A stretch of DNA of 64,000 nucleotides, taken from an uncultured candidate division Zixibacteria bacterium (GTDB taxonomy: Bacteria > Zixibacteria > MSB-5A5 > UBA10806). Positions 6,001 through 18,000 of this stretch are shown here, piece after piece; position 1 is the first letter of the stretch; the number at the start of each line of letters is the position of its first letter. Where the stretch lies: assembly GCA_963817915.1 (NCBI GenBank), contig CAWFQL010000006.1:64001-128000 (forward strand). Direction: 5' to 3'. The position numbers were made by a program.

Positions 6001-9000
6001 AGTCATGCCAAAATGATACAACAATCCGCCGGATGCCGCGTCAACATTCGGCCACGGGTCCTTGGCCTTGCCCTGTTCGCGAAGAACATCGGGAACAATA
6101 TTGAAGACCTTATCGACAATCTGGAAGATCGGATCATCCGCCATTACCTTCCTGCCGAATGCGCGGAAAGCATCGAATCTGGGATCTGTTATACGAAGCA
6201 CGGCGTGGCCGTAGCCCGGAATAACCTTGCCAGAGCTCAATGTATCCCACGCGAATTTGCGAAGCTCCTCGTCACTCGGTACACCTTTGAATTTCTCATG
6301 TACCATCAACACCCAGCCGAGACATTCCTGATTGGCCAATCCGTGCAATGGGCCCGCGAGACCGTTGAGGCCGGCGGAAACCGCGTAATACGGATCGGAT
6401 AAGGCGCTGCCGACGCAATGCGCCGTATGGGCGGAAACATTGCCGCTCTCGTGATCGCTATGCAAAACCATATACAATCTCATCAGGTTGGCGAAATTGC
6501 CGGTCTTATCTTTGATTCCCAGCATATGAGCATAATTGGCGGCCCAATCCAGATTCTTTTTGGGAGCGATTTTCGGACCTTTTTTGAATCTCATTCTATA
6601 GATGCCCGCCGCGATACCCGGTAATCTGGCCAACATATTGAGCGAATCCTCCAATGTCGGATTCCAATAATCGACCTTCTTCATGCCTTCATCGTATTTC
6701 TTGCGAAACGCCGATTCTTTTTCCATCACCAAAATAGCAGTGCTAAACATGACCATCGGGTGAGAATCCTTGGGCATCGCCGCCAAGACCTTCCATACAT
6801 AAGCAGGCACTTTGGCCCGTTTCTGGAATTCTTTTTGGATCGCCGCAGTCTCCGCCTTATCGGGAAGCTCGCCCGTGCAAAGCAGATAAAAAACCTCTTC
6901 GGGCAATTTATCGACTAACTGCGCCACCGGGATACCCCTTATCAAAAGACCCTTATCGGGCGGGACTTCCGAAGTATCGCAAACCAGCGATTTCACGCCT
7001 CTGGCGCCGCCGTATGCCGCACCCAGTGTGACATCGCCGATCTTCAATTCACCAAATTGCTTATTGAGTGTTGAAATTTCCTCTCTCCAAGCCGGAATTA
7101 GCGATGCTAATTTCTGCTCTAAACCTGCCATATGGAATCTCCTCTCAAACTGATTATTGATTCTGAGACGGTGATGATTATCACCGTTTTATCGTTATTT
7201 GTTTCCACGCAATCCAAATCTAAATCCACTCATCGCTCCTAAACTAACGCGTACTGTTCGATACATATAATTATCATGGGATACGATGTCAATGAAAAAA
7301 GAAAATTAGAATAGTTGCTAATAAGGTAAAGAGATTTGGCCAAAAAGAGTGCAGTCGGGTCGCCTGACCCGACTGCTCAATTGGTAAAGTCGTCGGGTGG
7401 GGCCACCCGACGACACTTTATTATCTATTTGCGGGCAATGCTATTAATTGGGGGTAGGCCCGAACCCCTGCGGTTCGGGCTCTTCAAAGGCGGAACCATC
7501 CGCCCGCGGCGGATTCCGCTCTACAGCTATGCTATTGATTGGGCTTGGAGGCGGGAGCCATCGAAGTCTCCCCTGATTTTCTCGATACCGCCGCACGGGC
7601 TGCTCGGTCGGCGACCTCTTTGCCTACCCCGGTGATCTCGATAATCTTGTCAACAGCCCTATCGAGCCAGACCGACCAATGGGAATTGGGGAATTTCAGC
7701 TTGAAATAATCGGTGACATCATCGGCTATAACCAGAATATACTCAGCGACTTCCCTGTTTTGCTTGACCTGCAGTAACGGCAGGATTTCCTTCTTAATCA
7801 GAAATCCGAGATAGACCATTAAAATTGCCCCTAAAGCCGCCAGCGATTTTTCAGTCAATAGGCCGCCAAGCCATGAAAATATGCTGGCGTTCAAATGGGT
7901 CGGATAAAATGCGAATAAAAACATGATAAATCTCCTTATGGTTTGAAATTATTGTAATTGCCAACTTGATAAATCTGGCACGGCCACTTTCGATTTGTAG
8001 ATCACTCCCGATGGATATTCGATCGTGAAGAGATATTTGGACGAGGTTTTAGAAAGTAGAGAATTGGGGATTAAATCGATTTGCCAGTAACCATGAATAT
8101 CTGTCTGGGTAGTTTTCTTGAATGGCGTGATTATAACATCATCGTATTTGACCGGCTGATATTCCGATGGTATCTCGACAGTTACAACGATATTTGCCAG
8201 GCTATCGCCAACTATATCATATACTCGGCCATAAACACGGCACAGGTTCGGCGATGGTGGATCGCCGGGATTGAAATCCGTAATCCAGAGGATATCAGTC
8301 CCTCCACCGCTAACAACGTTGATAGTATCCAGATCGGTTTGGATGTAATTATTTGCCCGCAATGCCACTACATAGCTGCCGGGATCGAGCTCGGTTATTA
8401 GCCGTCCATTTGAATCTGTCTGAAGGCCGGGCACCTTTGTGGAAGTCTGAGCGAGATTTCTGACAGTAACAGAAACGCCTTCAAGCGCGGTGGTATCATT
8501 ATCAAAAACATAAAGAGTCTCGGCCTCGCTTCCGCTGCCGCTAATTGAAAGCGCCGCGATATCATCCTTGATATTTTGGTTATCGCCGTTCCCACCGGCA
8601 TAGGCCCCAATTTTAGAATGCAGATCGATTGACGACCCTTTCCATCCGAGCGAAGCCATTATTGAGTCAACCCTGGATGTCAATGATGGCGGGATCGTGG
8701 CCGTGCCGCCGTGATTATCGAGCATGGTTTTGAAATTCGGCTTCACATCCAAGGAATCTAAGCTCGCTGAATCTGGATTCGACAAAACGGCGTTCCTGGC
8801 GTCGAATGTCAATTTGTCGGTTTTCGTTTTTATTGCTGTAAGATCTGAATTGGAATTGATGTTGACGTTGTTAATTACTCCGCCGACATTGCCGGTTGTC
8901 ATAAAGACCTGTGAGTCAGCAAGCGAATAACCAGATTTGTCATAAACATATTTCGATCTGAGATAAGACGCTCCGGTCGATCCGCTGTCCGATGTCGCCA

Positions 9001-15000: not shown

Positions 15001-18000
15001 TCAATTCGGGTCTGAATGATTTTTCTTTTATGTCATTCAGAATGGCAGGCAGAGAATCTAATTTAGATATTATCGCATCCATGTCGAGCTTGCCAGATGA
15101 AAAGCCGTCGGTCAATCCACTTTTGATTTCATTTAGCCTCGTTAAGATTTCATCAAATTCCAATCGATACTCCTTTCATTTGAATAGTTTTTGTTCAGTG
15201 ATTTGCTTCGCTTTTTAGAATCGCCTTGTCTTCTTTTGCCAGCACAGTCTCGATAGCAGTCAGCTTACCGATAACCTCATTCTTGAATGTCGAAAGGTCT
15301 TCCTTGGTGGCGAATCGTTCATTGATGACAGATTCCAATCTTGCCAGTCTGACATTCATTTCAGTCACATAACGTTCTTCTGCTTTCCCGGCGAGCTCGA
15401 CCCGCAATCCGGTGTAAATCGCGAAATATCCCGACAAGGCCGCGGCCAGCGAAATCGCCAATGTTATCAAATACTTTATCAATGAGTCTTTCTCGGGCAT
15501 ATAAGCCTCACTTCGTTAATTAGACTTAATAATCAGGAATGATTCGCTGTTATAATTTGCTATGGCGGCTTGATAGTTTGGTGGATATGCTATCAGCTTC
15601 GCGGTTTTGTTTTCGGCTTTCAGCGGTAGAATGCGAACCAACCTTTTCGATAAATAGGTGAGCGGAATTTCGACAAATCTTGAAATACCGTCGATTTCAA
15701 TTTCGATCTTGTTATCATCCTCGCGAGATAATTTGTCGGTTATGAATGTGCCCTTGACCGAGCCGCGATAGACTAATGATGTTTCCAATACTTGCGTAAT
15801 ACCATTATAGATGAAATGCGCTTTCTCGGCGGATTGGCCTGACGAATAATCGATATCATGCGGGCAACCGCGCATATCCTGGCCGCAGATTGAGCATTCG
15901 GGGAAATTATATGAGAATGATATCGAGCATTCCTTGAGAACACCGGAATCGATTTTGGTCAATAGATCGTCGGGCTCATCGGCTTTAGTTGTCGGCCAAT
16001 AGAAATAGGCTTTGAGCCATTGAACACCATTTTTCTCTTCGATCTCTGCATGAAATGTGCGTGCCAAAGGCGCCTGCGAATGATCATGACCGACTAATAC
16101 GGGCGTATCAATAATCAGGCTTTTCAATTTCGATAAATCCTCTTTTCGAAATCGGCCGCCATGGGAATTGACAAGATTATTGACAACATACATGGCGCGG
16201 ATATTGACATTTTTCGGAGCTACGAATCGCGGCGGCTTGATATTATCGTTAATCAATGACGCCAGATAATTGAGTCTGACATTCGGGCTATCCAATGTGA
16301 GCTCACAAGTAAGCATTTCAGTTAATTTTTCCATTAATCCTCCATTCTCCACCTCTCGGGGGTTTTCAAACCAAATGCTCATTGAACCAGTTTATGAGAG
16401 TGATAAGGATGAATCCCGACCATGCAATATGCGCATGAAATTGCATAAATAATTGACAAATAGTCAGGCAGCCGATGTCCATCATATTAAATATCAATGA
16501 GTTATGTGACTGTAAAAAAGAACTTACATCGGCACGGATATTGCATTTTCTATGGTTTGCATGGGTGTTTAGATTTTAGATAGATTTCTCCGCTTAGTGC
16601 CCTCCCCGCCAAGCGAGAAACGCGCCAGTCCTAAGAGGAACGGTCCCCAATACGTTCCAATTGAAGGCCGGTCTTTCACTCCCTCCTTGAGATCGGTCTT
16701 CTTTTTTTTTCGCATATATTTTTTCGATACCGCATCGTCGACATTCTCCATAAAGCCTGTCATTCCGGCCCCCGAGCCCGTCAAGGGCCGGGCCGTTGAC
16801 GGCCGGAATCCATCTTCTCTTGTGAGTGGCAGAAGCTCAAATTTATTCCGTTATCTGCCAAAGATTATCTAATTGCCCGATTTCCTTTTGGGATTATCTT
16901 ACGCGTCAAGCCTTGCCCGCCAAACAAACGGCGGATATACCCTGACCACAAAAAAAGCGGGATGCGGTCACGGCAAGCCGCGACTCGCAGGATTGGGACA
17001 GAGAATAATGATTGCGAAAATCTACATCTTAGTATATAATTATATTATATTAAGTATTATTGAAGGAGCCTGAGATGGCGGAAATCCGAATAGCTGGAAT
17101 TAGAATATTGCGTCATTCGCGATTCGCCTGAGATTAGCGAGGGAAGAAATGAAGAAATTTTATTTCAATTTGATTGTGCTTGTAATCTTGGCCAATGCTG
17201 TATTGACGCCTTTGCCAGCTTCCGCCCAGAATGTTGAATATATCGGCTCAACTCTGTGGGCCGGAGTCAATGATGTTAAGGCAGTTGGCAATTACGCTTA
17301 TTGCGCTTTTGCGAATGGCTTAATGGTGCTTGACATCTCAAATCCAGATTCTCCTTCATACTTGAGTCAATGTTATCTTCACGGAGAAGGTGAGGGAATC
17401 GATATCTCCGGAAATTATGCTTACGTGGCGGATGGGTATTCCGGCCTTCAAATAATAGACATAACCGAACTGGCTAATCCAGTATTTGTAGGGCGCTACG
17501 ATACGCCGGGCTCCGCTATGGGAGTCTTCGTCAGGAATGATTACGCTTATGTGGCAGATAGTTCTTCAGGCCTTCAAATAGTAAACATATCCGATCCGGC
17601 TAATCCGGTTTTGGCAGGAAGTTATGATACGCCTCATTGCGCTTTTGGAGTAGATGTCTCGGGCAACTATGCTTATGTAGCGGATGGGAGTACCGGCCTC
17701 CAAGTGATAAACATTGCTGACCCGGCCAACCCCTTATTGGCAGGAAATTGTCATACGTACGACTGGGTTTACGCGGTTTTTGTCCAAGGGGATTACGCTT
17801 ATGTCGCTGAATCGGAAGCTGGAATTCGAGTGATTAGCATAGCCGATCCGACCAACCCATTTGTCGTCGGGAGTTATGATACGTGGGGCTATGTAAATGA
17901 CATTTTTGTTCTTGGCAATTACGCCTATTTGGCGGCCAGATCAACTGGCCTTGAAGTGCTCAACATCTCCGATCCCGCCAATCCATTGCTGGTCGGGAGC

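Follow-up and report, generated by a model that had tools for sequence, protein, structure and literature searches.

A Phylum-Wide, Vertically Inherited Cluster of Phage-Type Head and Packaging Genes in Zixibacteria, Probably a Domesticated Particle System

Introduction

Gene transfer agents (GTAs) are encoded by structural and packaging genes of tailed-phage origin that reside in the host chromosome, possibly at more than one locus, and they are characterised by vertical inheritance, co-diversification with the host, slow evolution and the lack of replication and integration genes (PMC9662315, in excerpt). Capsid-forming satellites (cf-PICIs) are reported to release tail-less, DNA-filled capsids, which later bind the tails of various phages (10.1101/2025.02.11.637232, in excerpt). 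In the literature, we found no published description of a head-gene system in Zixibacteria.

Here we analyse such a gene cluster in a Zixibacteria genome (G000), within a 64-kb stretch of DNA (C6:64001-128000; the window), where a survey had noted a GTA-like element. Like the GTAs and viriforms as excerpted (RcGTA-type Rhodogtaviriformidae, BaGTA, BhGTA/VSH-1), the Zixibacteria cluster is vertically inherited, slow-evolving and without replication or integration genes. This is a likeness of listed attributes; a sequence relationship to described GTAs was neither sought nor seen. It differs from GTAs in that no tail tube, tape-measure, sheath or baseplate gene was recognised in it, and in that it includes secreted proteins. 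To our knowledge, all described GTAs have tails. With cf-PICIs the cluster has the head-only parts in common, namely terminase, portal, protease, HK97-fold capsid and connector (10.1101/2025.02.11.637232, in excerpt). However, cf-PICIs are mobile: as islands shared between species, they package DNA of their own. The Zixibacteria cluster, by contrast, lacks integrase and replication genes, is passed on vertically across a whole phylum and tolerates splits of 20-109 kb.

Results

Eleven co-oriented ORFs occupy positions 7532-16382 on the minus strand of the window (Table 1), as the survey's finding had described; its end at 16334 agrees with the likely true protease start (M17, 'MEKLTEML', with GGAGGA ahead of it). 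The portal and terminase genes, which had been placed at C6:111729-115010, were also found. Because the window is C6:64001-128000, they lie inside it at 47729-51010, so that an offset of 32000 was wrong and the gap is 31.4 kb, not 33 kb. Nor is this separation part of the design: it is a derived state of G000, and most relatives have the terminase gene upstream of the protease gene at a distance of 0.3-4.7 kb.

Table 1. Features of the cluster and its flanks (window positions)
Feature	Position	Strand	Evidence or remark
130-aa membrane protein, last gene of cluster, holin-like by cluster name	7532..7924	-	hydrophobic N-terminal segment
Secreted 487-aa protein, CarboxypepD_reg (prealbumin-like) domain	7949..9412	-	PF13620 5e-8
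Secreted protein in family-specific variable slot	9405..10658	-	signal-peptide-like N-terminus
Putative head-to-tail adaptor (HK97 gp6 / T4 gp13 type), 274 aa, inserted Ig-like beta-sandwich	10672..11496	-	AlphaFold pLDDT 87
123-aa conserved protein	11496..11867	-	17/18 loci
479-aa protein, seven-bladed beta-propeller + C-terminal beta-sandwich	11864..13303	-	AlphaFold model, pLDDT 92.9
HK97-type major capsid protein (MCP), 368 aa	13316..14422	-	phrog_3922 5.5e-61
Head decoration / cement protein, 140 aa	14457..14879	-	phrog_4588 2e-7, phrog_122 2e-4
81-aa helical protein, probable scaffolding protein	14918..15163	-	position, composition, alignment
101-aa protein, N-terminal transmembrane helix + coiled coil	15195..15500	-	sequence + 11 orthologues
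Prohead protease, 272 aa, S78/HK97-type by motif	15516..16334	-	phrog_16951 9e-16
Second copy of GTTCAATGAGCATTT 15-mer	16373..16387	-	~40 nt upstream of likely true protease start (16334)
REP-like palindromic repeat	16961..16991	-	upstream of head unit
Large terminase (TerL), 447 aa	47729..49072	-	Terminase_6N 7.5e-6, phrog_2 2e-26
202-aa protein between portal and terminase	49111..49719	-	by position
Portal protein, 429 aa	49721..51010	-	phrog_3753 7e-25, phrog_30703 5e-16
Promoter-like motif GTTCAATGAGCATTT	51074..51088	-	63 nt upstream of portal start
Inverted pair of same REP-like repeat	51137..51209		upstream of portal unit

The profile matches of the capsid and decoration proteins in the survey were reproduced, and the assignments of large terminase, portal and prohead protease hold equally (Table 1). 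In the protease, VGH and ECSLGF are invariant in the alignment, together with CxxC...CxH; a weak match to phrog_80 ('head maturation protease', 0.04) was also obtained, and in viral relatives the gene is placed between portal and capsid. The G000 protein lacks a C-terminal ligase-like domain that is retained in other families; this domain is intact in two Zixibacteria families and degenerate in five more loci. The 101-aa protein downstream has no Pfam or PHROGs family. The 81-aa protein aligns with proteins of 133-154 aa that occupy its position in 10 loci, and also with a 207-aa protein between the protease-ligase and decoration genes of the viral contig L033 (see below); the family has a C-terminal EDY(R/K)/EFK motif in common and is shortened in G000 (81 aa versus ~137 aa in other families). 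Its position and composition suggest that it is probably a scaffolding protein.

In the other half, TerL retains GNxRWGKS (Walker A-like), FDE, STP and three acidic nuclease-type motifs, invariant in 18 sequences and named as in T4 gp17. The portal gene was found by tblastn in 16 of 18 relatives' loci (34-62% identity), the 202-aa gene in only six, its conserved part being the C-terminal ~65 aa. The latter protein matched no Pfam or PHROG family; a small terminase would fit this position, but that is a guess, and no small terminase was identified for the cluster.

The BNR beta-propeller of the survey's finding is borne out by the AlphaFold model of the 479-aa protein, which in fold comes closest to PLL-type lectins (Z 26.5), sialidases and a chain of the LME-1 phage portal-tail complex (3e-10). 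The beta-propeller fold is generic. A nozzle-like part, a spike and a lectin are candidate roles in a particle. The 123-aa protein has no PDB profile match; the Atlas clusters closest to it (score 0.91) consist of viral hypothetical proteins, and a neck or closure protein would be a guess. For the 274-aa protein, the phi812 baseplate match was reproduced (Foldseek E 1.2e-6) but covers the inserted beta-sandwich only. As a whole, the modelled protein is predicted to be a gp6-like head-tail adaptor: VIA-align matches that each span both termini were obtained with T4 gp13, the phage GP4 portal-tail chain and the Pa223 tail (Z 8.8 each), the phiCD508 neck (8.6), HK97 gp6 (8.5), the Mu neck (8.4) and the SU10 tail (8.2), values (8.2-8.8) at which chance matches between helical bundles can occur.

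The distal proteins, previously called fibre-like, are instead secreted proteins with Sec signal peptides. Signal peptides are unusual for virion proteins. In the variable slot (likely GTG start at 10658, AAGGAG ahead), proteins differ between families and most begin with signal peptides; the G000 protein has tblastn matches in only 2/18 loci. The 487-aa protein is conserved in its C-terminal half; PF13620 also occurs in orthologues, most of which have Sec signal peptides. The 130-aa protein combines its hydrophobic segment with a conserved C-terminal helical domain in 12/18 loci. Its own Atlas cluster is automatically named 'Holin family protein', and 16% of the members of one viral cluster carry Phage_holin_6_1; no holin family was matched in Pfam (0/13) or PHROGs, so that holin-like is a lead taken from an automatic cluster name. 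No endolysin was identified in the cluster.

The 15-mer GTTCAATGAGCATTT is identical upstream of the portal and protease genes (E 5e-4) and appears promoter-like. The pattern GTYCA-N4-GCATTT matches only these two sites in the window; G253 and G261 have it at both of the corresponding places, with 14 matches genome-wide versus ~3 expected by our own arithmetic. The REP-like repeat has at least 60 copies genome-wide; its inverted pair upstream of the portal unit is a possible recombination substrate for the cluster split.

The single-copy capsid gene of the survey's finding extends well beyond its first sample. MCP matches occur in 255/285 phylum genomes (189/198 high-quality), nearly always once, TerL matches in 263/285 (190/198) and adaptor profile matches in 200/208 genomes at least 90% complete (190/198 high-quality); the cluster is single copy in ~96% of good genomes. 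MCP identity within the phylum is 57-81%. Outside it, the next clusters reach at most 40% (1.84 billion representatives) and phage records at most 33%, and all seven NCBI-named relatives among 120 matches listed are 'candidate division Zixibacteria'. Gene order is collinear in 20 loci (18 genomes, 16 families), chosen as one or two per family, mostly with MCP and TerL on one contig, and not at random. By tblastn, the terL, decoration (54-77% identity), MCP, propeller and adaptor genes are in 18/18 loci, and the protease, 123-aa and 487-aa genes in 17/18 each.

The ancestral state is one contiguous cluster of 14 genes (~12-16 kb) in the order portal-(202aa)-TerL, then protease-TM coiled coil-scaffold-decoration-capsid, followed by propeller-123aa-adaptor-variable secreted protein-secreted protein-membrane protein. 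The TerL/protease junction has been split several times independently, G000 included, with neither half lost; the splits span 20-109 kb. By hand count, MCP and TerL are both absent in 11 genomes versus 2.3 expected if independent, and 7/8 adaptor-less genomes are also without MCP. The system can be dispensed with. G086 (99% complete) has cleanly lost an internal segment that runs from the decoration gene to the adaptor, and retains portal, TerL and protease; G070 retains portal and TerL only; G029, a complete genome, keeps the head genes and has no TerL; G122 is without MCP, TerL and adaptor; and families f13 and f14 have MCP/TerL matches in 0/3 genomes.

The cluster co-diverges with host RpoB. 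Identities fall with rank for MCP (75-80, 65-71, 57-67%), TerL (69-75, 54-57, 41-52%) and RpoB (79-80, 72-73, 62-71%), and for each of six genes the distances correlate with those of RpoB (r 0.53-0.74, Mantel p <= 0.0005). Nine of 12 bipartitions are common to the RpoB tree and the MCP+decoration+TerL+portal tree, a number reached in 0/5000 label shuffles (best shuffle 4), in line with the vertical inheritance that the survey proposed. Every gene tested is under purifying selection, in both halves and in the split genome: between two species of one genus, one with a 91-kb split, dN/dS is 0.03-0.21 for 11 genes (decoration 0.03, portal 0.05, 487-aa 0.07, propeller 0.09, 202-aa 0.21). Synonymous sites have reached saturation at family level (pS 0.64-0.87; pN 0.15-0.42), the protease row against L001 being set aside because the reference start is wrong. 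Together, a phylum-wide, single-copy, collinear and co-diverging cluster is not a strain-specific prophage, as had been concluded. The survey had likewise seen no integrase, and a Pfam scan of the 11 cluster ORFs and 53 other ORFs of the window found no integrase or recombinase family.

Among the matches listed, the closest viral relative is L033, a 79-kb IMG/VR contig with 38% capsid identity that represents an uncultured lineage of contractile-tailed phages and whose order is TerL-portal-protease::ligase-207aa-decoration-MCP-4 small genes-tail sheath. Its protease has the same fusion to an ATP-dependent DNA ligase as several Zixibacteria families, and the head families are the same (portal phrog_3753, protease phrog_16951::ligase, scaffold-like, phrog_4588, phrog_3922), as is their order in the head module. 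However, in L033 the terminase precedes the portal, whereas in Zixibacteria the portal comes first; and downstream of the capsid gene L033 carries four small neck genes and a tail sheath, Zixibacteria the propeller, 123-aa protein and adaptor but not a sheath. Neither phrog_23 nor the sheath protein of L033 had a match in G000 (93.9% complete), while phrog_23 did match in E. coli and Synechococcus controls. Of the 80 listed IMG/VR loci, 79 (28-38% MCP identity) have at most the portal-protease-capsid block in common, and among them are about a dozen whole contigs, 12-14 kb long, in which the capsid gene lies at ~4.1 kb. One of these contigs has 67% GC.

Discussion

Judged from its genes, the cluster is in our view probably, with moderate confidence, a domesticated phage-derived capsid and packaging system, vertically inherited and kept functional. 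In such a system, protease, scaffold-like protein and capsid protein would assemble a prohead on the portal, which the protease would mature and the cement protein decorate. TerL would fill it with DNA, and this cargo would be host DNA because the cluster itself lacks a replication or cos/pac module. The gp6-like adaptor, perhaps with the 123-aa and propeller proteins, would close the portal into a neck or stub, and the holin-like membrane protein might help release. What results would be a host-owned capsid filled with DNA, with a stub for a tail or none at all, and delivery to another cell could use its own stub or borrowed phage tails.

The same parts, an own terminase, portal, protease, capsid and head-tail adaptor without a tail, would fit a fixed, immobilised satellite resembling the cf-PICIs, which are reported to release tail-less capsids (10.1101/2025.02.11.637232, in excerpt). 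Host heads would then be made only on infection by a tailed phage, package DNA and dock onto the invader's tails, with anti-phage interference, transduction or both as the outcome. That an adaptor has been retained hints at something still docking to the portal, and the limited block common to most listed IMG/VR loci, with the 12-14-kb contigs, points the same way. However, a mobile island could not survive the splits that this cluster survives, it is inherited strictly vertically and as a single copy, it has no known helper phage, and Pfam searches of the window ORFs gave no integrase, excision, replication gene or repressor in or beside it; we consider such a satellite possible but unlikely. 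An old cryptic prophage remnant, kept for single co-opted proteins or as a DNA-free shell (nanocompartment), would account for the lack of a recognised tail, lysis enzyme or small terminase, the partial sets in G086, G070 and G029, and the secreted and membrane proteins; a related capsid cluster of another phylum indeed has no portal or terminase within 10 kb. Yet an encapsulin-type shell needs no portal, terminase or adaptor, and here these genes are maintained: all 11 genes tested are under purifying selection, portal and TerL of the split genome included, the TerL catalytic motifs are invariant, and capsid, terminase and adaptor, each in ~96% of good genomes, tend to vanish together. We regard this remnant as improbable.

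The genes are unmistakably of tailed-phage origin, and one IMG/VR contig labelled viral, L032, has 62% capsid identity, as a phylum-specific temperate phage that infects each species afresh, with horizontal inheritance, might have. L032, however, has the tail-less order of Zixibacteria (portal-terL-prot-deco-mcp-bnr), the cluster and RpoB trees are congruent with one copy per genome, and the cluster has the codon usage of its host. Furthermore, MCP diverges only slightly faster than the RpoB catalytic stretch (mean pairwise distance 0.39 versus 0.33, 18 genomes), the cluster is still intact where host genes interrupt it, and no integrase, replication or lysogeny gene was found in the window ORFs by Pfam; reinfection by a phage is hardly credible.

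We thus read the domesticated system as GTA-like in inheritance and capsid-forming-satellite-like in parts. Particle formation, packaging, release and transfer are predictions from the genes; 'GTA-like' is therefore valid for the mode of inheritance only, and to that extent the survey's reading is partly supported. The uncultured Zixibacteria are a new host phylum for GTA-like elements, and what their cluster encodes looks like a DNA-carrying particle of a new type that belongs to the host.

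Gene Content of the Two Units

The head genes form a unit of 11 co-oriented ORFs, and a second unit, composed of the genes for the portal, a 202-aa protein and the large terminase (TerL), is adjoined by GT87 glycosyltransferase and short-chain dehydrogenase genes, that is, by ordinary surroundings (see the table of coordinates). The survey's finding had placed portal and terminase remote from the head genes, and they do lie 31.4 kb away, but both are inside the window, which begins at C6:64001 and not at contig position 32001. The capsid gene (phrog_3922, 5.5e-61), the decoration gene (phrog_4588 and phrog_122), the portal gene (phrog_3753, 7e-25) and the large terminase gene (phrog_2, 2e-26; Terminase_6N, 7.5e-6) were all correctly recognized; the proposed prohead protease is a member of phrog_16951 with a faint protease match in PHROGs. 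In agreement with the survey, Pfam scans of the 64-kb window found no integrase family, and family scans of the cluster and the rest of the window likewise yielded no recombinase, repressor or replication family. The GC content and codon usage of every cluster gene fall within the genome's own distribution. Elsewhere in the window, seven ORFs of 210-253 aa that look like paralogues lie in tandem, and six of the seven match outer-membrane beta-barrel families (OmpW / OMP_b-brl); there are also three tandem genes for PD40 (WD40-like) beta-propellers of 304-324 aa.

Coordinates of features in the window and in the loci used for comparison
Feature	Location	Strand	Context
Tandem array of beta-barrel-type ORFs	window 232-5198	-	
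Citrate synthase	window 5842-7131		neighbour on one side of the head-gene unit
Head-gene unit, 11 co-oriented ORFs	window 7532-16382	-	
15-nt motif GTYCA-N4-GCATTT	window 16373-16387 and 51074-51088		40-63 nt upstream of both start codons
REP-like 31-nt palindromic repeat, CCTGCGAGTCACGGCTTGCCGTGACCGCATC and variants with compensating stem changes	window 16961-16991 and 51137-51209		upstream of both units
LVIVD/T9SS-tail protein	window 17149-19272	divergent	neighbour on the other side of the head-gene unit
Three PD40 propeller genes	window 30858-34163	-	
Portal-202aa-TerL unit	window 47729-51010		
Protease::DNA ligase fusion	L009:11308-13641	-	Zixibacteria family
Protease::DNA ligase fusion	L010:6483-8687	+	second Zixibacteria family
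Protease::DNA ligase fusion	L033:6007-8748	+	viral contig
Transposase and antitoxin gene insertions	L005, G023:C6 15292-19329		either side of TerL
Internal deletion	L024, G086:C4:150000-169500		decoration gene through adaptor
Second capsid cluster, example	L151:8894-14848		another lineage

The protease has invariant VGH and ECSLGF motifs, which we take to be the His/Ser pair of the HK97-type (S78) prohead proteases, and a CxxC...CxH cluster. In families f16 and f17 it continues into an ATP-dependent DNA ligase domain (PF01068, 6e-29 and 4e-30) whose KYDG motif is intact, the f16 fusion also bearing a LigD-type phosphoesterase domain; a homologous extension that has no catalytic lysine occurs in five more loci (families f3, f12, f8, f7 and f10), and the extension is absent in the family of G000, the genome under study. 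It is a matter of speculation that the fusion targets a ligase to the capsid. An 81-aa ORF aligns with helical proteins of ~137 aa that other families encode in this position, as well as with their counterpart in the viral contig L033, and its product is probably a scaffold.

In the AlphaFold model of the 274-aa protein (pLDDT 87), a beta-sandwich is inserted between one helix at the N-terminus and three at the C-terminus. Its top structural matches, in which both termini are spanned, are T4 gp13, phage GP4, Pa223, phiCD508, HK97 gp6, Mu and SU10 (Z 8.2-8.8). Since these are consistently head-tail adaptors or neck proteins, we assign the protein as a putative head-tail adaptor despite the moderate Z-scores. 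The match to a phage phi812 baseplate protein pointed out in the survey applies to the inserted beta-sandwich alone and not to the rest of the protein. The predicted complex of portal and adaptor scored 0.00 in two runs carried out without controls, a score that argues neither way on binding, and a profile comparison of the adaptor alignment with two small post-capsid proteins of L033 gave no signal. The model of the 479-aa protein (pLDDT 92.9) is a seven-bladed propeller with a beta-sandwich; its fold matches are generic (lectins, sialidases), one being a chain of the LME-1 phage portal-tail complex. Searching solved structures with profiles from the propeller, adaptor, 123-aa and membrane-protein alignments was unproductive.

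The two proteins encoded before the last gene have Sec signal peptides in most orthologues, and the first of them occupies a family-specific variable slot. The product of the last gene is a membrane protein, and the cluster to which it belongs in the Atlas protein-cluster resource is automatically named 'holin'; a holin function is a lead at most, since PHROGs matched no holin family and Pfam found one in 0/13 orthologues.

Distribution, Descent and Selection

The cluster is a domesticated, vertically inherited head-neck-packaging module. A capsid protein query found matches in 255 of the 285 phylum genomes, 189 of the 198 high-quality genomes and 118 of the 130 genera, nearly always one per genome, which confirms the phylum-wide, single-copy capsid gene described in the survey. 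The corresponding counts are 263/285, 190/198 and 124/130 for the terminase query, and the adaptor profile matched 200/208 genomes that are at least 90% complete, 190/198 high-quality genomes and 104/108 genera. Among the best 120 of 664 capsid relatives, seven are named by NCBI, all as 'candidate division Zixibacteria' and all annotated as hypothetical proteins. Outside the phylum, a search of 1.84 billion cluster representatives returned one full-length cluster with 66% identity to the capsid protein, followed by others at 40, 39 and 37%, and the best phage records show just 30-33% identity.

Vertical inheritance, as proposed in the survey, is borne out by the sequences. The identity to G000 drops with taxonomic rank, from 75-80% in the same family to 65-71% in the same order and 57-67% in the rest of the phylum for the capsid protein, and from 69-75% to 54-57% and 41-52% for the terminase; a 514-aa stretch of RpoB, taken from 19 of the genomes used for the cluster proteins, gives 79-80%, 72-73% and 62-71%. 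For six cluster proteins, the pairwise distances were correlated with those of RpoB (r 0.53-0.74, Mantel p <= 0.0005 each), the mean pairwise distance being 0.39 for the capsid protein versus 0.33 for the RpoB stretch. Furthermore, in maximum likelihood trees of 15 genomes from 13 families, the RpoB tree and the tree built from a concatenation of the capsid, decoration, terminase and portal proteins have 9 of 12 internal branches in common, a number that none of 5000 label shuffles attained (best shuffle, 4), and the three conflicts are all at deep nodes with weak support.

The genes are under purifying constraint between the congeneric species G252 and G253: all 11 genes compared have dN/dS values within 0.03-0.21, at dS of 0.65-1.3 (capsid, 0.048; decoration, 0.030; portal, 0.052; terminase, 0.055; adaptor, 0.094; propeller, 0.087; secreted 487-aa protein, 0.069). 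G252 is itself split, with a terminase-capsid gap of 91 kb, and because this low-ratio pair includes a split genome, both halves of the cluster remain constrained after separation. At the family level the ratio is uninformative, since synonymous sites are saturated; the protease comparison with L001, in which the start was wrong, is disregarded. Across 18 TerL sequences, the Walker A-like, Walker B-like and coupling motifs and three acidic nuclease-type motifs are invariant; the motif names are our assignment, presumed from T4 gp17.

Gene Order, the Split and Upstream Motifs

We compared 20 loci from 18 genomes and 16 families, hand-picked and mostly with capsid and terminase on one contig. 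Their genes run portal-(202aa)-TerL, a variable stretch of 0.3-4.7 kb, then protease-TM coiled coil-scaffold-like-decoration-capsid-propeller, followed by the 123-aa protein and the adaptor (in either order), the variable secreted protein, a secreted protein of the 487-aa type and the membrane protein. By tblastn, terminase, decoration, capsid, propeller and adaptor are present in 18/18 genomes, protease and the 123-aa and 487-aa proteins in 17/18, portal in 16/18, the membrane protein in 12/18, the 101-aa TM coiled-coil protein in 11/18, the 202-aa protein in 6/18 and the variable-slot protein of G000 (526 aa) in 2/18.

The junction between TerL and protease is a hotspot. It contains 20-109 kb of host DNA in G000, G261, G252, G208 and G276, and 59 kb in G274; in G023 it is the site of a SocA/Panacea antitoxin gene, and on the other side of TerL an IS1595-type transposase zinc-ribbon gene separates it from the 202-aa gene. 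Since the cluster is contiguous in close relatives (e.g., G256, G250, G258 and G253) and this junction has repeatedly been opened, the 31-kb separation in the window is derived, one of several independent splits.

Two sequence elements occur upstream of both units. The 31-nt REP-like palindrome is present in at least 60 copies in G000, frequently as inverted pairs; as a genome-wide repeat, it is ruled out as an operator common to both units, and recombination between copies may have relocated one half of the cluster in G000. The 15-nt motif has no match elsewhere in the window, and in G253 and G261 it likewise precedes both units. Genome-wide, it has 14 matches (including ones on contigs C3, C10, C12 and C17 of G000) versus ~3 expected by our own arithmetic. 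Six further genomic copies have the extended consensus AAAAC..GTTCAAyCAGCATTTGTTTTGAA, one of them ~310 nt upstream of tRNA-Met and tRNA-Val, which weakens the case for a cluster-specific motif; because of these related copies, one being upstream of tRNA genes, the motif suggests a host promoter type.

Losses

By hand count, capsid and terminase are both present in 244 genomes, the capsid alone is missing in 19, the terminase alone in 11 and both in 11, the last versus 2.3 expected if losses were independent, a comparison confounded by completeness and kinship. Families f13 and f14 have a capsid or terminase match in 0/3 genomes, and G122 (98% complete) has no capsid, terminase or adaptor. In G086 (99% complete), a clean internal deletion has removed the decoration gene through the adaptor gene, so that portal, terminase and protease are left, together with the membrane protein and the C-terminal part of the secreted protein. 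Portal and terminase are the sole genes kept in G070, and the complete 2.1-Mb genome G029 has kept protease to membrane protein without the terminase. Some other 'absences' are probably assembly artefacts, because the capsid region coincides with a 100-N gap in G073 and G076, and the adaptor is at a contig edge in G018 and G173. Near-universal retention together with such losses indicates a system whose benefit has sufficed to preserve it throughout the history of the phylum, yet which is dispensable.

Viral Relatives

Among the 80 IMG/VR matches listed, 79 have capsid identities of 28-38%, and these loci have in common with the Zixibacteria set only the protease (65/80) and the portal (52/80), usually in the order portal-protease-capsid. 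The closest of the 79 among the matches listed, the 79-kb contig L033 (38%), has the order TerL-portal-protease::DNA ligase-207aa-decoration-capsid-four small genes-tail sheath (phrog_23, 2e-46). Because the protease-ligase fusion is present in this sheath-bearing contig, it is ancestral to a contractile-tailed phage lineage. The Zixibacteria element has retained the head, altered the order of portal and terminase, and is without the sheath in G000, where neither phrog_23 nor the L033 sheath protein gives a match; the same phrog_23 search was positive in E. coli and Synechococcus control genomes.

Several further loci carry related capsid genes in other settings. About 12 whole 'viral' IMG/VR contigs of 12-14 kb (L060, L066, L068, L069, L072, L084, L090, L096, L101 and others) have the genes for portal, protease and capsid at ~1.7, ~2.8 and ~4.1 kb from one end, respectively, and may be complete small head-only, satellite-like elements. 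The 8.4-kb IMG/VR locus L097 has the order capsid-121aa-adaptor-like-439aa-portal-protease and is the only viral locus among the 80 matches listed with a relative of the Zixibacteria adaptor (32% identical to the 274-aa protein). In L021 (MT835508, 'UNVERIFIED Bacteriophage sp.'), TerL-portal-protease-capsid has a MarR-type regulator and two ABC-transporter genes as neighbours, and no tail genes were recognized among the 23 ORFs scanned; the record may represent a piece of bacterial DNA or an element with a head only, and not a phage.

A second capsid cluster, chromosomal and conserved, belongs to another lineage, represented by 14 species-level MAGs (L139-L152) with contigs of up to 218 kb; two are titled Candidatus Omnitrophota, and a protein source names Ca. 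Hinthialibacter antarcticus. Its major capsid protein (MCP) is 35-38% identical to that of Zixibacteria and 62-89% identical among the 14 MAGs. The order is 156aa-decoration-MCP-254aa (SPP1_Dit C-domain, 6e-7)-protease-264aa-282aa, flanked by RF-1/CBS/ArsR and GalT/SAICAR synthase genes, and tblastn found no portal or terminase within 10 kb.

Discussion

On balance, we think it probable that the cluster specifies a host-owned system that forms particles and packages DNA; delivery might be by its own stub or by borrowed tails. The cluster proteins would build decorated HK97-type capsids, which terminase and portal, if working, would fill with DNA and the adaptor would then close. A functional or defective prophage would be contiguous, carry integration, lysogeny, replication, head, tail and lysis modules and be patchily distributed among strains; this does not fit the presence of head, neck and packaging genes only, in ~96% of good genomes. 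An encapsulin-type nanocompartment has an HK97-fold shell protein with cargo but no portal or terminase, which does not fit the conserved portal and terminase with their invariant motifs. Like the Zixibacteria cluster, a capsid-forming PICI encodes a capsid and the means to package DNA but no tail, and such elements are reported to release tail-less capsids that borrow tails (10.1101/2025.02.11.637232). It is, however, a mobile island with integrase, regulation and replication modules, induced by a helper phage, whereas no such genes occur in or beside the Zixibacteria cluster, which is vertical and single-copy.

Five lineages of gene transfer agents (GTAs) are named in the literature, and to our knowledge all described GTAs have tails. 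According to the viriform classification, which evaluates three lineages, GTA genes are part of the host genome, frequently dispersed over more than one locus, and lack replication or integration functions; they are mostly inherited vertically, co-diversifying with the host and giving congruent phylogenies; the head is too small for the element's own genes, the packaged DNA being a sample of the host genome; the encapsidated DNA is delivered to other cells; and the particles resemble tailed-phage virions, with head and tail (PMC9662315). Of these attributes, the Zixibacteria cluster has host-resident, dispersible genes (31 kb apart here, 20-109 kb elsewhere), the window showing neither an integrase nor a replication family, and vertical co-diversification (9/12 bipartitions; 0/5000 shuffles). 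An apparent difference lies in the tail: head, portal and adaptor are present, but no tail was recognized, with no sheath match in G000 and no tube or tape-measure family in the Pfam and PHROG scans, which covered the cluster.

A more far-reaching proposal, which we regard as unlikely, is that a tail-less, neck-capped, DNA-filled capsid would be a standing gene-exchange organelle of Zixibacteria without a delivery device of its own, completed by the tails of any available phage or by a stub made of its propeller and 123-aa proteins. The secreted proteins encoded at the cluster's end, which are inherited with it and vary fast, would then be its cell-surface side, acting as receptor or in exclusion. 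Taken with the related but differently arranged L139-L152 cluster, this would suggest that capsid systems inherited on the chromosome form a class that has been overlooked in several uncultured phyla.

We found no publication linking Zixibacteria with 'gene transfer agent' or 'major capsid protein', and the cluster is unreported in the literature searched, subscription journals being outside its scope. Every source that names the cluster genes calls them 'hypothetical protein', and at least one Zixibacteria-like fragment (L032) is filed as a virus in IMG/VR; because of such annotation and filing, clusters of this kind inflate prophage and viral contig counts. The loci also offer a natural variant series for asking which parts are needed, with contiguous, split and partly deleted clusters and a putatively capsid-targeted DNA ligase that is presumably active, degenerate or lost. 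If our reading is true, this would be a sixth, phylum-wide and apparently tail-less GTA-type system, in an uncultured phylum of sediment and soil; the domestication of phage heads would be commoner and more varied than thought, and a lineage with no known vehicle for gene exchange would have one.
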